NCBI RefSeq assembly: GCF_032062105.1
Contig: NW_026931074.1
Coordinates: 345,587-409,586, forward strand
DNA length: 64,000 bases
Reading direction: 5' to 3'
Source of the DNA: Saccostrea cucullata
Lineage: Eukaryota
Shown here: positions 1,813-60,043 of the stretch, in pieces
Layout: every line of letters begins with the position of its first letter
How positions within the stretch are numbered: the first letter of the stretch is position 1
Translations under genes and position numbers: made by a program
The notes under the pieces: generated by a model
What the model saw: the letters and a program-made list of their open reading frames with translations, nothing else
Databases searched by the model: none
Told to the model about the DNA's origin: nothing

Positions 1813-2259
1813 ATGGACTACTCAGGGAGATATAAGCGATATTCACGAACTGACTCAAAAGACAGTCGTAGTAAACTAAGTTCTAAAGATAGTGGCAATG
1901 CTTCACTACCTACCAAACCAGGCTCAATGGAAAGTTACAATACAGCATATACTAACGGCAGTCGAACCTCTCGCAAAGAAAGTGGGGAATTTAATGCAAC
2001 TTACAGAGGTAACGATTTAAACAGGAGACAGATAGAGAACAATAATGTGACCGGGCAGCAGAGACGGAGTGGTGAACTTAGTGACAAGCCGAGGGAGGCA
2101 AGAGATGTTTATCCTAACTATAGGCCCAGTAAAGGGGGTGGAGAATATAACAGCAAGCAAAGTGGAGAAAACGGCAGTGGTAAACGAGCAATGAAACCCA
2201 AAAATCAAGGAAAACAAACCAAAGAACCTGAATCAGAGAGGGGTAGGGTAACAGTATAA
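1813..2259 (+). CDS. Candidate coding exon(s): Ser/Arg/Lys/Gly-rich low-complexity polypeptide of unknown function
   Basis: 148-codon open frame is unusually long for this AT-rich context. A possible donor (acagag|gtaacg) lies near 2008. No recognisable domain. Could belong to an upstream part of SPEF1-like gene C or to an unrelated gene. Confidence 0.25.
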   Translation: MDYSGRYKRYSRTDSKDSRSKLSSKDSGNASLPTKPGSMESYNTAYTNGSRTSRKESGEFNATYRGNDLNRRQIENNNVTGQQRRSGELSDKPREARDVYPNYRPSKGGGEYNSKQSGENGSGKRAMKPKNQGKQTKEPESERGRVTV

Positions 2260-5184
2260 TTAAACGAATAAGTCACAAAGCACGAGTCAGAAAGCCTCAA
2301 TCTCAAAGTGGACTTCTTAATTGTACAAACAAATCAAACGTTAGTGGATTTCTGTCAAATAAAATCAGGGTCTTATCTGGCAGTTTGAGAATGTTTAATC
2401 TCATTTGGTTCATATGAATTCTTCCTCTACACCAGAGACCAATAAATGCTCACAATATACAGAAAGTCAAAAATTCAACTTTTTGGGAAATTTTTTGAAA
2501 GGCAGAGGAAAAATGACTATGAATGCTAAACATGGAAGCTCATATAATTATGAATTTTTGATACTTAATGTTGTTCCTCTGTTTGAGGGTTGAGGATATG
2601 GTAATATTCTCAGCAGAACTTATATAAGGACAACTGTCTGTCCTGTAAAACAAAGTGTCAGTCTCTAAAAATAAGAATGTAAAACGAAATCCTGAGTGTC
2701 AGTTGTAATCCATTATTTGTATGATATTGATCTGATGTGTCAGTGTTTAATGTTGTTAACGGTTTTTGCCACACTTATAATGAGACCAAAGGTTTAGCTG
2801 CAGTAACCCCTAGTTTCAGGTGCTGGGATTTGTACGGTAATTGTCTCTCTCCTGTTGGCTCTTCATTGATCGTACAATCCACTGGTATTCACATGTTGCT
2901 AGGTAAATCAGCATTGCCAACACTAGAAATCCTACATCTGTTATACTGTTTCTTTTTTAAGTGAAAAAAACTGAATGACTGTCAATTAAAATGATCTGAT
3001 GACTGTAGGCTATAGAGAAATTTCTTTTTGATAATTGGAAGTTTAAATTTCTCCGCTGAAGGCCATGCACTGATAAAGTGTCTAATATAAAGAAAACACA
3101 GTTTAAATTCCTTGATATTTAAGTCTGCTTAAATAAAGAAATTGACAATTCATTTTCAGAGAGTTACTTAAACAGAGAGTATCTGATTATCTTTATGATT
3201 AAAAAACTTTACCTAAATGTGAAGAGGGTTTGTTAGGCTTTAAATTTCTAAATGCACTTTAAAAGGTTCTAGTTGTGATATTCATAAATGTTGAAGTGAA
3301 AAGAATATGAAAAACTTTTCTTCTTTTGTATAAGAATTGTACAAAGGCTTCCTATAAGTGTTTGTTCATGAAAATGAAACTTTATTTATATAGACCTTAT
3401 ATTAAACAGCTCCTTGCTTAATATTCATTGACAACATAAACCCTTGTAAAATTATTCCTTTCCTTTGACTCTGTTTATTTTTGCTTTTTTTCACTTTGCT
3501 CTATTTCATATACCGGTAATATGAGGCATGTCTAAAAGTCTACATTCATGAAAGCGGCTCATAAGTGCTTAACTGCTTTATTGATTTCAAGTTCCTTGCA
3601 CTGCGCAGAAAACACTGAGCCACTTAACAAACAGTTTAAATTAATTCTGAAACTTTTAATGCATAATTTATCAAGTCTTCATTGAATGTTTTTACTGAAA
3701 ACAAATTGTTCAATAAGGTTATTAAATACAGAGTTAAAGTGCAGATATTTAATTTTAATTTTCCTCTTTCTTGCAGAGGCGTTAGTTCCAGTAAAAACAG
3801 GGAGGTCTTCACCGGGAAAACTGGCATCTCCCCGCAAACTAGGGAAGGGAGAAATCCCCCACAACCATCCAGACAGATCGTAAGTACAGACCCAATAATC
3901 CCAGGGTACAGCAATAAATCAGGGGAGGGGGATATACAATAGTTCAGAAGCTGAAGCAGGTCTATGACGAGTGTTCCCATGGAAGCTACATGACTGAGGT
4001 CAAGGTCAAGTGAATAAATGCGATATTTTCCACCCTAGTCACAGTAACCATTTTTCCTCTCAGTTTCCTTCACGGGAATGTCTGCAACATGAAAACAGTG
4101 TCAAACTTGGCTCTCTTTATGCTTCAGATAATTTCAAAATATCTTTGTTTTTTTTTAAAGAGAAATTAATAATGTAAGGGCCCTGGAACAAAGAATTCAG
4201 GTGCAGTCACAAACTATTTTTTTGTAAGTTAAAGCTTTTGGTCAGCTCTTTATGTTCTCTGAAATGTGTTGTTTTCTTGTGAAAAAAAGTATAAGATCAA
4301 AAGAGCAGAAAACATTATCACCTAATTAAAACATACAGTTTATACATGTGACAGAAAAGTGAACAGACCATTCTTCAAAGTATAAAATCTCAAAGAGAAA
4401 AATTCTAGGTATAAGGAATTTTTACTGGAGTAAATCTTATCTTTTATATATAATTCTCATTCATAATTTCTGAGCTAATTGTTCAAGGGATATAACTCTG
4501 TGTTATGTAAATTACATCAGGAAAAAGAAAGTGGAGCCAATACTTTGGTAAAATTCTGTAGTATTAATACGACACATATAAGATATATTTAGAGTTTTCC
4601 CTTCACAAATGCTTTTTTCTGCACACATTTTTTTTCAATAAAGTTCAATGATGTTAATAAGGATCAATATGTTACTTTTAATTACATTTATATACATGTA
4701 TATTAAAACATTTACTTGATTGCACACTTCTTAATGTTGTAAAGAAATTAATGAAAAAAAATTAAGCTGCTTATCATATGATTTGCTATTTAAAATAAGG
4801 TCTGTAAAAATAACAACTGTAAATTTAGGTAAAAAATAAGTGTTAATTTAAAAATTCTACCCGTGGAATCTTCTGTTTGTTTGATTGGATAATTTTCAGT
4901 TTTGAGTTTGATGCTGATATTTATCAAGAGACAGGTGAAATGCCTGAGGGCTACTTTTTTGTGTCACACTGAAATGGTTTCTGACTTGATCAGTAATTTA
5001 AGTGTCCTACCTAAATAATAGATTCAGTGTCTGTTTTAGCACTAGAACAGTGTGGTACCGGTACATGAAATTTAAATAAGTACTAGTAAATGTAATTACA
5101 AAAATCATTACCTGCGTAACTGGTTCATATTTATTATCAACAAAATAACCAATACGTAATTAAGGCTTTTATTAGCTTACCAGT

Positions 5185-6238: not shown

Positions 6239-7290
6239 CGAGGGGTTATCAAAATGTTTGTGGACTGAGCTATAGAATTAGTACTATATAGTCTGTGCTT
6301 TTAAAATTTATATGGAACATAAAACAACAAAAAATAAAGAAATGTTGAAAATTTTAGCCTGATACGTTCATTATTTGCTAAATTATTATAAAATATAAAC
6401 TACATTATATGGTCACCCGGCGCTGTCGTCGTTTTTTTTTATGACGTCCGATAACGTCATTGTTTTTTCAATGTGTTCTTCTACCCCATACACTTTTTTG
6501 ATGAGATTCCCTGGAGCTGAGTAAGGACTTAAACCTGCCTTGTTTATATGACTTTACAATGTCATGAACAGTGGCCTTCAATGAATATAATATTCCAAAT
6601 GGATTAATACATAGGGAGAGATCCGCGCTTGATTGTGCCGGCATATTTTGCTTTTGGGAGTTCAATACCTACAACACATGATCAACGTCATTTTTTGACG
6701 CGATTGATTTTTCACACCTTGACTGCAAATCGAAATAAACGGTGTATCCCTTTTCCATCTGAATCTATTGTGACATTAAAAGACAAGTACTCTGGATGCA
6801 TATTATTTCTCTGTAGCCATTTTCAAAATATTTTAGGTCTATACCATTTTTTTCAGGGGCAAAACTTTATAAAATGTTGGAAACGGAATCCCTCCCCCCT
6901 TTTTGACGTCATTTGTTTGGACATTCCGTGAAAATTTACGATAAAATTTCATAGAACATCCAGAATGAAGTGAAAATTTCATATTTTATTGAACAATTAT
7001 GTCCCTACACATACCTTAATTAACGGGATTTTTGGATGTCAAATGATTATTTCAAAAGAGTTTTTCTCAGTTCCACATAGATCGCAAAAACGTCATGTGC
7101 GAGGTAGCGCCGCCTGGACATACCATTGCTCACAAAAACATGACTAATTTATTAAAAAATAAAATCTATGATTTATGGTTTATTCTTTATAGAAAAGATG
7201 ATGCTAACTAGATATTTTAAAATTCATTGATGTGCCTAAAACGGTTTTAATTTTATGACGCTAGTCCACGAACTTTTTGATAACCCCTCG
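6239..7290. mobile_element. Non-autonomous DNA transposon (Tc1/mariner-like MITE, about 1.05 kb) with 16-bp TIRs and TA target duplication
   Basis: TIR cgaggggttatcaaaa at 6239-6254 is the reverse complement of ttttgataacccctcg at 7275-7290. TA dinucleotides flank both ends (6237-38, 7291-92). Interior is CpG-containing with recurrent tgacg/cgtca motifs, unlike the surrounding CpG-poor DNA. Confidence 0.45.
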
Positions 7291-9614
7291 TATATGTTAC
7301 TGGACTGATTATCACTGACAAAACTTTTGAATATGTGAATAACAATCAGTGATTAGAGTTACATAAACTGTTTCAGAATTACAGCAATAAGACTGAAATC
7401 ATATAGTCCTGGGAGATTTGACATAATGGAGTATCCAAGGTATATTTGTTTGGTGGAAAATGTGGGAGGGGCCGGGATTTAATATAAAAATATGCAGGTG
7501 TCTGGCCATATTGCTGCAGCAGCATCAAAAAGATAAAAACAACTTAATGCAAACATAATTGAAACCAGCACTGCTTTTGACAATAATTGTGCTAAGCAAT
7601 ATGGTGTGATTTTAGGGTAAGGTGAATTTTGAATGTTACCATGGTTACCATGCAGTGATGTAAGTTAATTATTTTGTGTGTTAATTGGCATGAGGGTGAC
7701 TGATGCTTATCAAATAATTGTACAGATTTAACAATCTTCACTCAACTATAAAACATGAAATGCATGGATATAATATATTATGTATATGTATTTGATCAAC
7801 ATAGTGAACATACCATGGGTTTCAATTGTGATGAATATTCTATAGAAATGTTATATAGTCTAGATTTCTTCTTTAGAGATCCTTTTTGTCCTTCAGAGAG
7901 ACCTTTTAATACCGGTAGTGCAAACAAATGGTTTTGAGAAATATGTATCTAAATAGTTCCATTCTTTGCCAGAGTTACTGCCCTTGCTTGATCCTTATAA
8001 ACTGAAAACTGGTCAATTCAAAGATTATTTATTAATAAAATAAAAACAAACCTTTTTTTTCATTTTTTCAGGAAAATAATTTTTGTCACGAAAAAATACC
8101 AAAACTGTTTCTGTATTTATTATTCACAAATTACTTTTCAGTTTTGGATAGCAATCTTTAAGATTTTCTTTAAAAAAAAAAATCAAAAATTAAAGCATTT
8201 ATTTATAAGTTTTATAAAACTATGTGGCTTAGCTTATATTAACCTTACATGCATTTTAAATGTTGTGTTGTGTATTTTAACATTTTTTGTAAAAGGACAT
8301 TTAATAGTTGAAAAAAAGTGAACCAAAATCATAAGTACTTAAGATTAGATTGATTCATCTAAGGCTCCGACATATATATGCTGCAGTTCATGTATACTAA
8401 AATTAAAGTAAGGTTCAGTAGAAGAAAATGATAACATTACTTTTAATTTAAAAATGTGAGTTTTTCTCTGAGATTTTGATATATTTACTCCATATTTTGA
8501 AGTATTGGTGTAAAATCAAAAAGAGGATTGGATGATATAGGGTAAGAAAACACCCGCCACCAATTAGTAGAATCATAGATCACTGTATTTAGTCAGACTG
8601 CAAATCACATCACTGGCTTATCTCCCCTTGATGTTTATATATATATATATAATCAGAATACAACTATAATATTCATTTGTTCAAAAAATATGCTTTGATA
8701 AAATATCAGTTTTTAATAGCAGGTGCTTTTAAGGAATTAGAGTTACTAAGTTACTTTATTTGTAACTGCATGACTGTATACATACTTAGTGACAAGAACT
8801 AATGGATTAGATTATTGCAAAAAAGTGCAATTCATATTTTTAATGCCTGTTTTTTGACAGACTTTATATTTTTTAAGATTTCAGTCTATCAGTCTGTACT
8901 TGTTAGCATTCTTTGGTGTCTGCCAATTCACACTGAGTCAGCTCCATCCACCAAGCCTTCTCAGTTGATGCATCTTGGGATGAAAGTATGTCACAACCTA
9001 AAAGTAGGTCACCATGACCTCATTTCAAAATTTAGTGACTGTGCAAGATCAAATTGTGTTCTTGCACCCTTAGATCTTGGAACGTCAAACTTAGTCAGCT
9101 AAAGCATCTTGGGTATTGTGTGTGATGCAACCCAGAAGAAGGTCACTTGGGGGGGGGAGGGGGCTTTCTTTTTAATGTGCCTTTACATATCAAATAGTGT
9201 CCTGATCATATCTTGCAATTTACTGTGATGCTTAGGACAACCAAACACTGACAGTTGATGCACCTTGTAGGAAAGGTGTAAAGCAATGCAGAAGTAGGTT
9301 ACCTTGGCCTTATTTTGTACATATTACTTAGTAATACATGTAAACCATGTGCAGAGCTTTATCTTACGCGAGGAATTTTATAGCTATAGATAGTCAGATA
9401 GTGTTTGGATGGGGATAACATGTACCTTAAGCTGTGTATTTCATTTTTTATCACAGAATATCTCACATTTTCATTTTTTTTGTTAGAACCCTAAGTTCAT
9501 TAATGGCTACAACAAATAGATATTATGAAATCCTAATTATCTATTTTTTCCAGTAAAAATAAAATGGACATTTTGCTATAGGATGAGTTTAAAATCAGTA
9601 TATATTCTTTTCAG

Positions 9615-9744
9615 TTCTTACCACTTTGAGGGTAAGGGATATTTTGATCCTTCGATCTACATCTACCCCACGTCAGACAATGTGCCCCGCAGTTATCTCG
9701 AGGAGAAGGAGATGGAATGCCTGGCTAAGGATGAAACAATTAGA
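9615..9744 (+). CDS. SPEF1: SPEF1-like gene C, penultimate exon (130 nt, phase 1 to 0); encodes ...NVPRSYLEEKEMECLAKDETIR
   Basis: Acceptor ttttcag at 9608-9614 and donor gtaagt at 9745. Same length and phase as exon 6 of genes A and B. Shares the motif VPR.L.EEK..ECLAKDETI(R/Q) with gene B exon 6. Confidence 0.55.
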
Positions 9745-11078
9745 GTAAGTAACAGATCATCACTGATACCCCAGTGTCTAAAGGCTGGGTAGATGTCGGA
9801 TGTTTGAGACATGTGCATTGTCTCAACAGTCCCGAGTCCACTCATATCTCAGATCTGTCCTATTTTATCAGATTATGCTTTACTCGCATTGGTCAATGAT
9901 TTAATAAGCCATGAAATTCTCGTTCTCTTATACAAACTCTGCCAGAATGGGAGAGGGTATCATACACTGTATGACTGTGGTGTGTATGAGACTTGTAGCT
10001 GATACATGTAATTGTTTAAAATATACTGTAGAAGTACTTTTTTTCCACATGGTAATGGTATTAATCTACGCTATGTATGCAGTCACAAATTTTCCGCAGA
10101 AATTTGTCCAAGCGTTCTTAACAAATGTAAGGCATAAAGTGACACTCTTTCTACCCGCGGATTTAACAAAAATTGAGATTCCGTGGAATTATGACCGGCC
10201 CGTGGAAAAAAGTATGTCTACAGTAATTTGGATCTGGTGTCTATGATGCAGTGTCACAGTAAAATTGCATAATATATTCCATGTCTACTGCAATTGAAAT
10301 GCAAGGTCAAGATTAAGTTGAGTAACTGGTAGGTATTCCTTGTATTACTTGTTAAATGCTGATAGCTAATTATTTTTACAACACTGTCTCATAATAATCA
10401 GCATTTATAGGGACCTACTACTGGTACATGTAGTTTCAAGACACTGGTACGGTAATTCACTAGAATTTATCTTAGATTTCAAACTGACTGCACATGCAAT
10501 AGATCTGTAGAGAATAACTAAATGTGTGTGATAATATTACAGAAGATGGGGTTTGTAGAATTGTTCTGCACTTATTTTGTAGATTTTAAATACTAAAGTG
10601 AAGAGATTAGAACAGCTAAACAGAATTAAAGAGGAAAGAATTACAGACATGAAATTCCAGCTTGTCAATGACTTTAAAATCATGCATTTTACCAACAGAA
10701 GACATTACCTTAAATAATTTAGTCTGATTGCACAACCTTAACCCATAATTATCTCCCTTTGATTTATTTATTTTATCTGCATATTTTTTTTTCTTTTGAT
10801 TTTTTTAATTCCAACTACTAGCAGTGACAATCACTTATATCCTTACTAATATACTGTATCCCAAATGAATGCATGAATTTTTTTTTTTTTTTTAGATTAT
10901 AAAAACAAAAAATTATTGAAGCTTATTTGGATTTTAATGCTCAGACAGATTGCAACAAAGAGAAAAAGAGAATTGCTTATCAACTGCTTCAGATTTCACA
11001 AGAAGGTGGGAGGGGATATATTTTTTTCATTTGAGAACAAAATCATTAATGAACTGAAGAATTTTCCGTTTTTTGTAG

Positions 11079-11213
11079 ATACTGAATTCCAAAATCAGGC
11101 GATTAGAACATCTTATACAGCTTAAAGATACGCGGATTCTTGAGCTCCAAGGACAATACTCTCGCGAGCAAAGACTGTATTATATGGCCGCTAGAAATAA
11201 CATCTTACGATAA
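11079..11213 (+). CDS. SPEF1: SPEF1-like gene C terminal exon, copy a (ILNSKIRRLEHLIQLKDTRILELQGQYSREQRLYYMAARNNILR*)
   Basis: Acceptor ttttgtag at 11071-11078. In phase 0 after the exon at 9615-9744. Coiled-coil motif RLEHLIQLKD.RI..LQ matches the terminal exon of gene B (60492-60608) and of gene A. Stop TAA at 11211-11213. Confidence 0.5.
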   Translation: MLNSKIRRLEHLIQLKDTRILELQGQYSREQRLYYMAARNNILR

Positions 11214-11412
11214 CCCCTCACACATTCCACTCTAACTCCCTCTAATTTCATTAACATCACTGGTTTTTATTTCAGTTTTACATTTTTTCCTCTGTATATC
11301 ATATCTTCTTTGTTTTGTTTAGTTTGTTCATTCTCAGACTTTAAATGCATATTCTGGAATCAGGGAAGCCTATTGCATGTTCACTTTTTTTTTCTCATGT
11401 CATATTTTGTAG

Positions 11413-11547
11413 ATGCTCAATTCAAAAATTCGAAGACTTGAACACCTCTTACAGTTAAAAGATACCAGAATGTCTGATCTACAAGGACAGTTAGCAAGAG
11501 AGCAGGGTTTGTACTACGTGACCAGCAGGAAGCACATTATTAAATAA
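11413..11547 (+). CDS. SPEF1: SPEF1-like gene C terminal exon, copy b (MLNSKIRRLEHLLQLKDTRMSDLQGQLAREQGLYYVTSRKHIIK*)
   Basis: Tandem duplicate of 11079-11213, 334 bp downstream, with its own acceptor (tattttgtag). Same length (135 nt) and same phase. Likely an alternative last exon or a decaying duplicate. Confidence 0.45.
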   Translation: MLNSKIRRLEHLLQLKDTRMSDLQGQLAREQGLYYVTSRKHIIK

Positions 11548-12780
11548 GATACTGCTCACCAGCATGAGCAGCATGATTCAAGCATGTAGTCAGATTGGAT
11601 TCGCAGCATGAAAACAGCATCTTGAAATATTTCATGAGACCATTCTCTCTTGCTTATGTCTTTGTATGTATTGTCTCATCATACATGTACATATTATAAG
11701 TAACCAATCACAAGTCCCCTAACAAATGGTGTGTGGGCGTCTCCTACTAACTTATAGTACAAGCATGATCAGTGGGGAAGGATTGTGCCGAATCGACTGT
11801 GATATTTTTCTGTGATAATTCAGATTATCAGTGTATATATTGCCATCGAGAGTTTGCAGTTGTGCTTATTTATTTTCTGTTTTTGTCATAGAAGTCATGT
11901 ATTAAAAATCATTTTCTTTTTCCCAAGACTATAATCAAGGTAGTCTAATCTTTTTTATGTATATAAAACTATTAGGGCAGGAATTAAGAACTGCCAGAAT
12001 TTTGTAATGATACCCAGCAGTAACCATCAATTTTAAGTCACATAGATTTTATGAGGTAAAAATATTTATTCACTTGATAACTACTGCTTAAGGGTTAAAT
12101 AGATATCCTATTTTCTGGATTTCTGGAAATATCCCCCCTCCCCCTCCTGAAATGTAAGAATTTAACCATATATATTTTTAAAACGAAATATTCCCCTCAT
12201 CCCACCTATTTTCCCCCTTTGACATTTTTGTTTCGTCAGATCCTAGAAGTATACATGCATACTTAACTATAGTATGTTTATATTTAGTTTATTTTTTTCA
12301 TTGGGAGAAGGAGGTAGGAAAGGGAAGATGCTAAAATGATAAGACTTGTGAATAATTTATCCATCTATACCTCAGTATAACAAAAGTTTTAACTAATACC
12401 AAGTAAGTTACGAAGTATTCCATGTTTGCCAAACTTTTGTACATAGAGGAACAGTGCCTAAATCTTATAACAGCTAGCGAATCTCTTTAACTGCCTTTGT
12501 TATATTCTCTAAGTACTAAATTTCCAATACCCAACAAATACTATGTGGACAGGGAATTTCTTTGTAAATATTTAATGTAATCCATTGTAGACAGCCATTT
12601 TGTTTGAACTCTCCAAGATTTGCTCACACCTTGTGTTCTCTCCCTTGTTTTGTCTGGCCTTTTGTTCAAGTTTTGTTTTAGTAGATTTTTTTAGAAATGT
12701 TACCTGCATGTTTTTATTAATTTTTACAGATTTTGTTATTATGCCCCCCTTCGAAGAAGGGAGGGCATATTGCTTTGCTG

Positions 12781-14562: not shown

Positions 14563-15715
14563 TATATGTTATTTGTTTGATTCACGTAAATGAGTTTGGC
14601 ACAACTACCGGTACCGATTCTGTTTATTGTGGAAGTGATGGCATTATAGTAAAATGTCAGAACTCTGTAAAATTCTTCAGACAGCTTCAGACTGTTCTTT
14701 CAATGACTGTTATGGTTTATTCACAGATTTTATAGGTATAAATATTATATATATATATATATATGCATCATATTATGAAATATTAATGTCTGTATTGGAC
14801 AGTTTTTCAGTCCAGGAAGAAAGTCACAGTTTTGCTATATTATAACACTTATAGGTTGTTCTCTAGAATGTAACACTAATTTTTTTTTTAGGGGTGAGAG
14901 TTTCTTTATAGAGAGGAGAGATATTTCTTTATTCTTTATTTGACTGTGATGTATTCATTATCATTATTTATGTAAAGGAGGTATATTTATTTACAAGTTC
15001 AAATAAACACTTTCTACCAGAATGTTTTATTTCTTACTTGAAGCAACTCGTATAGCTTTAACATGATCATTTTATATGCAAACTTACATGCAACAAAGTT
15101 GCAACATCTCTACAGTATCAAATGTCAGCTTAGGAATTTACAAAACATTTAAATCATATGGTGATTAGAAGTGTATGTTCTAGATGCAGCATCTAGCTAC
15201 ACTAGTTTGGTCAAGGTAGACTTCAATACTTGGGCATGCTAGATGGCTCTTAGAATCAAAAGCAAGAAAGATAATCTGTGTCCACCTTTGGGCTTATTAG
15301 GCAAGCTAGAAATTTAAAAAATTTTGAAAATCACTTTCTAGATATAATGGGATTTCTTGAAGAGAAAATAACAGTGATCAACTGCAGCATCTAGGAGCAG
15401 GTCTGCATTTTATATTCTCGAAATGTCTAAAGTTTTCCAGGCTTTTTTTTATTTTTAGTATTTTGATATTTTATGTTTTCCTAACATGTAAAATGTCAAA
15501 ATCGTTTTTTTTTAAAAAAAAAAAAAAAAGCCCCATATACATAAGATATTTCAGACTAATTTTAAAATAAAAATAAATTTCCCACTCTAAGCAATTCACA
15601 TAAATTATTCACATTCTCCCAAATCCTTAAGCCAGGGTCACACCTTTCAAATAAACATTAATGTTTGCTATTTCTCATTCAGAAGCAATCGACAATAGTT
15701 TTTTTCATCCTAACT

Positions 15716-49890: not shown

Positions 49891-50222
49891 GCCGAGTTTA
49901 GGTAAATCGATGCACCTATTTCCTCAGCTAAAAATTGAGTTGGGTCATTTTTAGTACATAGTATGTTTTTATTTGGATCTTTTACAGTACAATTTTTCAT
50001 ATGACATTACTAATTTACTATTATATTTCAGTATGTTGTAATTATGGTTGACAAAATCAAATGTTTATATATGTATAAGAAACTATTCTGGAATATGTTT
50101 TTGGTATACACTAAAATCAATGTATTCAGTTTATTGTGAAATCTGAAACCAAAGTATTTCATCCTTTGTCACACAAAAATTAAAAAAATCATTGATGGTT
50201 GTCACTGATGATTGTCCTGTAG

Positions 50223-50334
50223 TTTTGGTGGCCGAGATAGTCCAGAATTTCTTTCCTCAGCTGGTGCAAATGCACAACTACACCCCGGCGAGTTCAACCA
50301 GTCAAAAGAGGGAGAACTGGCTCCTCCTCAACAG
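50223..50334 (+). CDS. SPEF1: SPEF1-like gene B exon 2, variant a (112 nt): (V)LVAEIVQNFFPQLVQMHNYTPASSTSQKRENWLLLN(R)
   Basis: Acceptor tcctgtag, donor gtacagg. Phase 1 in, phase 2 out. Joins exon 1 (..DG|V) and exon 3 (R|KVFKKLNF). Confidence 0.6.
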
Positions 50335-51122
50335 GTACAGGAAGGTCATGCTCTGCTGCCTTTGTGGTTTTTGGTGCTGTAGTTCACTTAACATCACCTG
50401 GAAATCTCAGTGACATGTCACATACTTAAGTTCTAGTATTTGGGACTAACACTCTTGTCTATAATTATGATTATAGATATACAGCTTTTAATTTTATTTT
50501 ATATATATCTTTGAGGTTACTTTTAATTTGTAAATTTTAACCATCTTGTTTATTTTCATGCTGTTTGCCCTATGCTGAATTAATTCCTATAGTAACTGAT
50601 ATCCAGGTGATTCCCTTTGTAGCAGCTGATAGCGTCTGTATCAATGTCTTATAAATATGTCTAGGATTAATGTAGTTTATATCTATACTGTATGTTGTCC
50701 CTCAGTTCTAATGTAGTACTGAGTAGTCACCCTTTACTGTACAATTAAGACATGCTAGATCTCTCATTTTGTCATATCTGTCATATTAATCAGGGCTTTC
50801 AGAATCTGCTGAGATATGGTACTTTTACCTGAATCAAATCATGATTGTTAATTATCAGCCAAAATATTTGTTGGAGAAAATTTGATAAAATTGCTTCCAT
50901 AAGGTTCCCCTATTTTTGTCAAAGTACCATGTTTCACATCTTTTTGAAAGCACTGATTAAACTTACCTCAGTTGATATATATATATTTTTTTTACTGATT
51001 TTATTTTTTTTCTTAAAAACTAATGTAAATAATTTGATACTGTTAGTAAGCTAGGTTTTGTGTGTGTGTATTCCTGTGTTAGAACTTTGTTAGAAATGTG
51101 CTTTTCCAAAAATTCATTTATT

Positions 51123-52229: not shown

Positions 52230-53065
52230 TTTTTCTCTTTTTTTTTGAAAGTATTAAAGATAAAATATTTTGATGTAGACATAGGTCATTATTTCCACAC
52301 AGTACAGTGTATGAGAAAAGGGTGGGGCGGCCCCATACTAGCCAAGTGTAGTAAAGTAAATGGATGTCAAGTACTACCACCTGAGTGTAAACTATAGCTA
52401 GCTGTTATATAGCATGTATAACTCCTAGCTTTTCCAGTTATAGCATGTAATCCATGTATAGCTCTTAGCTCTTCCAGTAAAATATCAAGTAATCCGAGTG
52501 TAAAAAAAGTCATTTAGCTCAGCATTTTGGTCATTAGATATCGAAACAATTCAGTTGTCAGGATGACAGTGGTATATAAATTCTGTGTCAGGAGTATGAT
52601 TTAATGTCATGAAGCTATACTGTAAAACAGAAAATGCCAGCGTTCTTCAGAGTTCAAGTGTATATCCAGTATAGGACTTTTGTCTGTAGCTATAACTGTT
52701 AAAGACGTTTATCTGTATGTAACTGTTGAAGACTTGTCTGTATGTAAGTGTTAAAGCATACAATATTTCACTGGCCATTACTTAAATTTAACAGAAAGAG
52801 ATTTAAATTACACTTTATGTTTCAGGTCAAGGTCAAATGTCAGTACAGATTAAGGCCACTCAGACATTGAAGGGATTATTGCTTCCAATAGATCATGTTT
52901 TATTCATATATCATTTTGAACAATTTTGATTTCAGGTCAATCAAGTGGAATTTAGGTGTATGTGTGGCAGACTCACTATGATAGCGTCATATCTGACCAG
53001 ACATACATAACATATGTATCATTTACTGGCAATATATGCTTTACATTCTGCTTAATTACTTTCAG

Positions 53066-53177
53066 TACTGGTTTCTGAGATTATGTATCATAAATTCCCC
53101 CACCTGGTGCAGAAACACAACTATAGCACGGCAAACTCCACCTCAAAAAAGATGGAGAATTGGTTTTATATGAACAG
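53066..53177 (+). CDS. SPEF1: SPEF1-like gene B exon 2, variant b (112 nt): (V)LVSEIMYHKFPHLVQKHNYSTANSTSKKMENWFYMN(R)
   Basis: Acceptor tactttcag, donor gtaacaag. Identical length and phases to variant a. Not listed as an ORF in the track because it is short, but it reads open in the exon frame. Confidence 0.55.
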
Positions 53178-54469
53178 GTAACAAGTGGAGACCCTTGTAC
53201 AGATTTAACCTGGTTTGTTTGGTTCCCTATTAAATCAGAACCTCTCCCCTCCTTATGACATATAGCTAGAACACCCCCCTATACAAACACTTCTCCGAAC
53301 CCCACTTCTTTATATCTAATTTAATTTGTCAAAGACTGATAAATTGCAAATTGTTTTGACATTCAAAATTAAACTTGAATTTAAATTTAAACATATACAT
53401 GCTTATGTAAACAGAAAACATCGTTAGAATACTCAGTAGTACATTTATCTTCTTATTAAAAGCATGCTTTACCATAAGAAAAGGAATAGTTTACAAAATT
53501 TCCAAACTCTTTTTGACATTGACAAACCACTCCCATCACTTTAAGTTTATAAATTTCAAAGCTTGTCTGAGATTAATGTTATGGAGTCCTAAAATCCAAA
53601 AGTATGAGTACTATGATCATTACATGAAGTTGTACAAGTAACTTAATTTTTTCTTAAAATGGAACATTTTGGTCTTAGACTTTCTTACTGAACATGAGTT
53701 GTTATATATTGAAAATGACACATTTGTTAGAAAAACAGAAAACAGTACCTTTTCAGCCCCACCCCCCACCCTCGCCCCTTCCTTTCAGACTCAGATGCAT
53801 GTAAATAATTTTGCATGTAAATAATTTTGTCATTAAAGAAATGTTCATCATGTAATTCACCATTTTATAAAGAAAGCTCTGAAGGTTCAATTTTAAACAT
53901 TATAGTTTTACCATATTTCATGAAATCATGTTGAAATTGAATTCACTATTTTTCCAATGCAGTGTTTTTGAAACCCAAAGCCAACACCTGGAAGATTTGT
54001 TCATTAATTTCTCTTGAATTTTAACTAAAATACTTACACTCAGTGCCACGATCATAAGCCTATCTCTGTATCAATGATCTAGTGACTGAAATGAGGAGAA
54101 TTGTTAAACACATGATACAGTATATAGGAGTTCATTACTGAGTCCTTGCAGATAAACTTAGGATATGATAAATATATGTATATCACAGATGGGTCAGTGA
54201 AGAAGTGGATATATTCTCATATACATTGTATTGTGAATTTCTTTGTGCCTTCCATATTGATATTTGTTCTTTTAGGGCAGTTACCTTTTATATGGAGTTC
54301 ATTGTTAAATACACAACACACATAATTAAAACAAAGATATTTATTTTCAGTAAAAGTATAGGTAATGATTCTCTTATAAAATTAATATCTAAATAGCTGT
54401 ATCTCACTTCCATTCTCAATGACCATGTTGTGTAGGATTGCTCCATGAAAATTAAAATTTTTATCCAGT

Positions 54470-59913: not shown

Positions 59914-60043
59914 GCCTAGCAACTTTACAGAGAAACCCAAACAAAGAAGGATCCCCCCACATCTAACTGAGGCAAACTCTGTACCAAGACTGCTGTTTGA
60001 GGATAAGGTCCAGGAATGTCTGGCCAAAGATGAAACCATACAG
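59914..60043 (+). CDS. SPEF1: SPEF1-like gene B exon 6 (130 nt): (R)PSNFTEKPKQRRIPPHLTEANSVPRLLFEDKVQECLAKDETIQ
   Basis: Acceptor aatttcag, donor gtaggca. Start of the C-terminal coiled-coil region. Confidence 0.6.

Follow-up and report, generated by a model that had tools for sequence, protein, structure and literature searches.

Three alternative terminal coding segments in a third SPEF1-like gene of the oyster Saccostrea cucullata

A third SPEF1-like gene and its terminal array

The stretch of Saccostrea cucullata DNA analyzed here (NCBI RefSeq assembly GCF_032062105.1, contig NW_026931074.1, positions 345,587 to 409,586 of the forward strand) is 64,000 nucleotides (nt) long and AT-rich, with approximately 33% G+C, and is referred to as the window, in the coordinates of which positions are given unless a contig is named. 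Next to two other SPEF1-like genes (genes A and B), the window contains the 3' part of a third SPEF1/CLAMP paralogue, gene C, which carries the name "sperm flagellar protein 1-like" in RefSeq. In a protein search with the exon translations, every gene C exon within the window was 100% identical in amino acid sequence to the S. cucullata RefSeq isoforms of that name. The full-length protein is 323 amino acids (aa) long in isoforms X1 to X3, and these isoforms carry the PF06294 CH_2 domain with a score of 117 bits against a cutoff of 27, which agrees with an earlier note on this DNA, made from the letters alone, that had proposed a third SPEF1-like gene. The note had also described, behind a 130-nt exon, two consecutive copies of the last exon, at 11079 to 11213 and 11413 to 11547. 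Both are present as described, but a third copy at 10583 to 10717 had been missed, so that the last coding segment is triplicated. The 3' part of gene C comprises the following features.

9615..9744, + strand: constitutive penultimate coding exon (exon 6), 130 nt, with a ttttcag acceptor and a GTAAGT donor, ending in phase 0
10583..10717, + strand: terminal segment c0, proximal acceptor, 135 nt, encoding ILNTKVKRLEQLNRIKEERITDMKFQLVNDFKIMHFTNRRHYLK followed by a stop codon
11079..11213, + strand: terminal segment c1, middle acceptor, 135 nt, encoding ILNSKIRRLEHLIQLKDTRILELQGQYSREQRLYYMAARNNILR followed by a stop codon
11413..11547, + strand: terminal segment c2, distal acceptor, 135 nt, encoding MLNSKIRRLEHLLQLKDTRMSDLQGQLAREQGLYYVTSRKHIIK followed by a stop codon
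11548..11956, + strand: shared 3' untranslated region (3'UTR), minimum extent (transcript contig L009 648-1192 corresponds to 11413-11956), with the polyadenylation [poly(A)] signal ATTAAA at 11901

Exon 6 reads SYHFEGKGYFDPSIYIYPTSDNVPRSYLEEKEMECLAKDETIR from position 9616; the half of the Spef1 coiled coil that it encodes is the acidic N-terminal one (...SYLEEKEMECLAKDETIR). Its counterparts in gene A (34502-34373) and gene B (59914-60043) are also 130 nt long, as the note had observed, and the boundaries that the note had given for exon 6, which lies between an AG acceptor and a GTAAGT donor, are confirmed by L009. The segments c0, c1, and c2 each consist of 44 codons and a stop codon, start in phase 0, and follow the acceptor ttttgtag/AT. 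In tblastn searches, c1 matched c2 with an E value of 3e-17 and c0 matched c2 with an E value of 7e-9, and for all three, matches to the gene A and gene B last exons had E values between 1e-3 and 1e-7; c0 is the most diverged copy (32 to 36% identity to c1 and c2). A repeat search independently placed the three segments, spaced 496 and 334 nt apart, in one three-member family (D1). When profiles of DNA and of protein were built from every copy at hand, they detected exactly three copies in gene C and one each in genes A and B, and no decayed fourth terminal copy in gene C. A candidate for such a copy at approximately 10888 to 10902, belonging to the direct-repeat family D13, was supported by neither profile and was rejected.

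All three segments are used in RefSeq models, in which isoforms X1 (XP_062569244.1), X2 (XP_062569245.1), and X3 (XP_062569246.1) differ solely in their last 44 residues, derived from c2, c1, and c0, respectively; c2 also ends isoforms X5, X6, and X7. Transcript evidence independent of these models was obtained from contigs assembled de novo from public sequencing runs (Logan). The same-species contig L009 (SRR26159594) joins 3775-3879, 9615-9744, and 11413-11956 at approximately 98 to 99% nucleotide identity to the window, with its positions 413-517 corresponding to 3775-3879 (99% identity) and 518-647 to exon 6 (97.7%), and thereby establishes the exact boundaries of exon 6 and the junction from 9744 to 11413. 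The 9.6-kb and 11-kb segments, the assignment of which to different transcription units would by the note have refuted its reading, thus belong to one transcript. In a related species, contig L001 also joins exon 6 to c2, while among Crassostrea contigs, L008 joins exon 6 to the c1 orthologue, and L005, L006, and L007 join it to the c0 orthologue; the Logan proteins P0028 to P0031 are also of the c1 type. The use of different copies by X1, X2, and X3 and by independent transcript contigs bears out the note's suggestion of alternative C termini. Proteins with c0-, c1-, and c2-type tails occur in both Saccostrea and Crassostrea/Magallana, and those with c1- and c2-type tails occur also in Ostrea. 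For the same 289-aa architecture, 46 Logan contigs end in c2, compared with 7 in c1 and 3 in c0, and the longest pyrimidine run at an acceptor (12 to 13 nt) is that of c2. The distal acceptor thus apparently yields the major form, although contig counts are a crude sign of this.

Orthologues were compared among the window, a related oyster genomic contig (L003), and a transcript of another oyster (L005), the latter two being Crassostrea-like; the three differ by approximately 12 to 24% at the nucleotide level. In all of them, c0, c1, and c2 follow one another in the same order and comprise 45 codons each, without a frameshift or internal stop. The ratios of nonsynonymous to synonymous substitution (dN/dS) among orthologues were 0.13 to 0.35 for c0, 0.02 to 0.17 for c1, and 0 to 0.16 for c2, single estimates being noisy at 44 codons each, and each of the three copies is under purifying selection. 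Between paralogous copies, synonymous sites are saturated, with proportions of synonymous differences (pS) of 0.81 to 0.90, which indicates that the duplications are old.

Probable nested acceptors with a common 3' end, and rival explanations

The reading that we favor, with a probability of roughly 0.8, is that the 3' end of gene C arose by an old triplication of the last coding segment and comprises three nested alternative 3' splice sites with a shared distal 3' end. The last coding segment, together with its ttttgtag acceptor, would have been duplicated twice in tandem before Saccostrea, Crassostrea/Magallana, and Ostrea split. Exon 6, which ends in phase 0, would be spliced to one of the three acceptors, at 10583, 11079, or 11413, and translation would stop in the first copy 3' of the chosen acceptor, the later copies becoming 3'UTR. 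Because each copy ends in a stop codon, the tails would be mutually exclusive in the protein without a special exclusion mechanism, and in this design no exon junction would lie 3' of the stop codon. From whichever of the three stops one reads on, the next canonical poly(A) signal is the ATTAAA at 11901. Past the exon 6/c0 junction, contig L005 is colinear with the genomic contig L003 over positions 3791-5023, which include c0, a spacer, c1, a second spacer, c2, and the UTR, and L008 is colinear with L003 4234-5022 from c1 onward. In the window, L003, and L005, AATAAA and ATTAAA are both absent from the spacers that separate the copies and are found only 3' of c2. Given this colinear read-through and the lack of signals between the copies, nested acceptors are the likeliest arrangement, rather than three exons with poly(A) sites of their own.

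A scan for inverted repeats in the window, L003, and L002, which was ungapped and covered few species, found no shared long-range pair at the acceptors that could act as a docking/selector-type RNA structure. The sole conserved pair joins the c2 coding sequence (11493-11508, AGCAAGAGAGCAGGG) to the 3'UTR (11639-11654), approximately 130 nt apart, with a perfect 10-bp core. It is found at equal spacing in a related species (L003 4671-4685 and 4814-4828), and no covariation was seen.

Several points weigh against this interpretation. The read-through contigs are short-read de Bruijn assemblies from Crassostrea species, and pre-mRNA coverage could lengthen them. The c0 contigs L006 and L007 end 25 to 36 nt past the c0 stop codon, and variant hexamers lie at 10848-10898, between c0 and c1, which leaves some room for a weak proximal cleavage site after c0. 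In S. cucullata itself, an independent transcript contig was found for c2 only, with the use of c0 and c1 coming from RefSeq models. A more distant relative (L002, an ENA contig of ERZ25084491) has only two terminal copies after exon 6, at 6866-7000 and 7323-7457, of which the first is c2-like (80% amino acid identity) and the second is divergent, with no clear match to c0, c1, or c2; no c0-like copy was found in L002. The array has therefore changed in some lineages and is not fixed across all relatives. Finally, the idea that the tails tune the coiled coil, taken up below, draws on residue positions and general coiled-coil knowledge.

Alternating terminal exons usually arise as classical alternative last exons (PMC5740500), in which each copy would have its own cleavage/polyadenylation site and proximal polyadenylation would compete with splicing to the distal acceptor. 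The ends of L006 and L007 would fit such an arrangement, as would the weak hexamer variants AATATA and TATAAA found between c0 and c1 in the window, but the canonical signals are absent between the copies in all three sequences compared, and the spliced contigs L005 and L008 continue unbroken through the downstream copies into the common 3'UTR, so that, on this indirect evidence, we regard the explanation as unlikely. One or two of the copies could instead be nonfunctional, either as young decaying duplicates, which the note had offered as an alternative, or as splicing noise captured by RefSeq models, and only c2 would then matter. The dominance of c2 among the Logan contigs and the divergence of c0 are what such a history would predict. 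Against it, the 45 codons of every copy are intact in all three sequences compared (the window, L003, and L005), even c0 and c1 have dN/dS values far under 1, the saturated synonymous sites speak for an old rather than a young duplication, and the three tail types recur in proteins of Crassostrea/Magallana and two of them, c1 and c2, in Ostrea. Decay of a young duplicate is contradicted by these data, and nonfunctional copies in general are very improbable.

A different concern is that gene C might be a truncated 3' gene fragment that lacks a CH domain and has an internal promoter at approximately 1.8 kb as its sole start of transcription. The note had found no CH-domain exons in 1-9.6 kb and had suggested a 3' fragment, upstream exons in low-complexity ORFs (open reading frames), or exons outside the window. 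In tblastn searches of 1-9.6 kb with a human SPEF1 sequence, with each gene A and gene B exon, and with the exact RefSeq protein, no CH-domain exon of gene C was matched, and residues 1-166, which make up the CH domain and one further exon, had no + strand match 5' of the exon at 3776-3878. A fragment would account for this, and for an intact ORF at 1813-2242, the orthologues of which are annotated as CH-less in other oysters. However, both the RefSeq isoforms and the same-species protein P0058 (contig L009) join the CH domain (residues 1-135) directly to exons within the window, and we consider a fragment to be almost certainly the wrong explanation. Since residues 1-166 have no such match, the 5' exons lie upstream of position 1, as the last of the note's alternatives had it; gene C is partial solely through the window edge and is complete in the genome.

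Upstream exons and neighboring genes

Upstream of the terminal array, gene C has the following exons within the window.

1813..2242, + strand: candidate alternative first exon, coding part, encoding MDYSGRYKRYSRTDSKDSRSK..., of low complexity; intact ORF, with a putative donor G/GTAGGG after 2242
3776..3878, + strand: constitutive internal exon, encoding (E/Q)ALVPVKTGRSSPGKLASPRKLGKGEIPHNHPDRS; translation identical (100%) to that in RefSeq isoforms and Logan protein P0058
7377..7439, + strand: cassette exon, 63 nt, encoding ITAIRLKSYSPGRFDIMEYP(S); 100% tblastn match to P0016/P0022, with AG/GT boundaries
8503..8541, + strand: cassette exon, 39 nt, encoding IGVKSKRGLDDI(G); matches P0016/P0021/P0022, with boundaries read on the sequence

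The note had named the ORFs at 1813-2259 and 3776-3878 as possible upstream exons. The latter was correctly recognized, being present in L009 as well as in the RefSeq isoforms and P0058, and it coincides with an 83% conserved island in L003; a frame of this exon reading …RNPPQPSRQI was rejected, as the RefSeq and transcript proteins use the other frame. The former is orthologous to the alternative first exon of other oysters, with a coding part that extends only to 2242. The ORF at 1813-2242 is 57% identical to the N terminus of "uncharacterized protein LOC128182515" from C. angulata, and models resembling its product are found in Ostrea edulis, M. gigas (Magallana gigas), and C. virginica, all of which run on into a 3776-type exon. 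These "uncharacterized protein LOC..." orthologues are annotated as CH-less proteins in those oysters. The reading frame, checked on the sequence, works through the donor after 2242. The ORF is thus predicted to serve as an alternative first exon in S. cucullata, which would imply an internal promoter and proteins composed of the linker and coiled coil only, without the CH domain.

The 63-nt cassette exon is missing from isoform X6 (P0021) and from P0058. The 39-nt cassette exon lies within a block conserved in L003 and L004 and is skipped by X5 (P0122). A candidate exon at 7616-7659 was rejected, the RefSeq and transcript proteins showing the real cassettes to be those at 7377-7439 and 8503-8541. 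A block at 7601-7665, approximately 160 nt 3' of the first cassette exon, is 88% identical to the related-species contig L004 1283-1345, occurs in no retrieved protein, and contains two 5'-splice-site-like motifs (GGTAAG and GATGTAAGT), and its inclusion would add a stop codon. A role as a splicing regulatory element or as a poison exon is possible for this block.

Genes A and B are arranged head to head, approximately 2.6 kb apart. In each of them, exon 2, coding for a portion of the CH domain, is present as a tandem pair with proper AG/GT boundaries, at 40026-39898 and 39413-39300 on the - strand in gene A and at 50222-50335 and 53065-53178 on the + strand in gene B. RefSeq isoforms of gene B take one exon 2 copy each, the first in P0106 and the second in P0103, and the pairs of both genes look like classic mutually exclusive exons. 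The S. cucullata assembly contains, on a contig of 27.1 kb, a second, truncated model of 243 aa named "sperm flagellar protein 1-like" (P0120; XP_062609594.1). As far as the cassette exon, this model is near-identical to gene C, after which it continues in nonhomologous sequence; an uncollapsed haplotig or a fragment of the assembly is the probable explanation. A short block at 14969-15025, well downstream of gene C, is 90% identical to L003 6376-6433 and could belong to a neighboring gene, as an exon, or to a long 3'UTR.

The exchanged half of the coiled coil and its meaning

The tail of exon 6 together with the terminal segment aligned by phmmer to the coiled coil of PDB entry 9ijx, "Sperm flagellar protein 1"; query residues 8-52 matched chain residues 19-63 (E=1.1e-9), across the junction between exon 6 and the terminal exon. 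The alternative segment is accordingly the C-terminal half of the parallel dimeric coiled coil of Spef1. Spef1 proteins bind the microtubule seam through the CH domain and homodimerize through the C-terminal helix (PMC11642885), and seam binding and dimerization or microtubule bundling are known for the mouse, human, and Tetrahymena proteins (PMC11642885; bioRxiv 10.1101/2025.07.31.667833). In the mouse, the coiled coil forms a parallel dimer, the core residues of which are I184...L226, and is essential for dimerization, phase separation, and central-pair formation; an L208A/L212A mutant is monomeric and nonfunctional and fails to support central-pair formation, and phase separation is tuned by how charges are arranged on the surface of the dimer (bioRxiv 10.1101/2025.07.31.667833).

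On the basis of the 9ijx alignment and the published residue numbers, position p of the terminal segment corresponds to mouse residue 199+p. The exchanged segment therefore supplies the core equivalents of residues 201, 205, 208, 212, 219, 222, and 226 (including mouse V205, L208, L212, I219, L222, and L226) and the basic patch K204, R207, K215, and R218. K204, R207, and K215 are invariant in 17 of the 17 aligned tails and R218 is nearly so, and among the core residues, L201 and L208 show no or almost no variation. Two core positions are copy specific and are kept across species: at position 13, every c0 has Asn, every c1 has Ile, and every c2 has Leu, and Tyr at position 27 is confined to c1. 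A buried Asn in a coiled coil favors like-with-like pairing. Because the core residues are copy specific and include this Asn, a role of the three tails in tuning the stability of the dimer or the choice of partner is plausible. A more elaborate possibility, which we put forward tentatively and consider rather doubtful, is a dimerization code, in which Asn13 in c0, as opposed to Ile in c1 and Leu in c2, together with Tyr27 in c1 would lead to like-with-like pairing of isoforms and to separate, nonmixing microtubule cross-linkers, with the CH-less isoforms capping or titrating the dimers.

Gene C shares with mammalian Spef1/CLAMP the PF06294 CH_2 domain and the C-terminal coiled coil (PDB 9ijx), and differs from it in having three exchangeable C-terminal coiled-coil halves, cassette exons, and a CH-less alternative start. 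Beyond approximately position 24, the gene C tails replace the canonical ...RVESMRPTG.. ending that is kept in genes A and B and in other molluscs. Vertebrate SPEF1, to our knowledge, has a single C terminus. In a literature search on oyster SPEF1 isoforms, no paper among those listed mentioned SPEF1. The closest parallels are outside the family. Drosophila pip and the 3' variable regions of PGRP-LC have tandemly duplicated, mutually exclusive terminal exons (PMC9013439) and, as in gene C, homologous terminal units stand in tandem and one is used per protein. Competing RNA structures are the cited mechanism of choice in PGRP-LC (PMC9013439), whereas the ungapped scans of gene C found no conserved long-range complementarity at the acceptors; the units of gene C, moreover, seem to share one 3' end instead of being independent terminal exons. 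Internal mutually exclusive exons, such as exon 2 of genes A and B, resemble the gene C segments in their origin by tandem exon duplication, in their conserved length and phase, and in producing isoforms that differ in one homologous segment. Such exons need a barrier to double inclusion, whereas in gene C the stop codon in each copy suffices. Tandem exon duplication with homologous substitution is a recognized class (PMC9741552). The gene C isoforms are already in RefSeq and represent ordinary alternative splicing from exon duplication, without a new class of mechanism. Two features are distinctive, namely, the proposed arrangement of nested acceptors that share a single 3' end and the identity of the exchanged piece, which is half of a functionally essential dimerization coiled coil.

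The main value of these results lies in annotation and quality control, in that gene C is established as a complete expressed gene, a missed terminal copy is added, and the reading of a copy as a pseudo-exon is removed. They also describe a natural experiment on the Spef1 coiled coil, in which oysters keep three C-terminal halves under selection that differ at core positions, and alongside these three tails, genes A and B alternate part of the CH domain. The tails of gene C provide ready variants for studying how the coiled-coil sequence sets dimer specificity and microtubule bundling. If the proposed dimerization code holds, one gene could supply cross-linkers with different condensate or bundling properties to distinct ciliary structures, for instance the types of gill cilia, the larval velum, and sperm.

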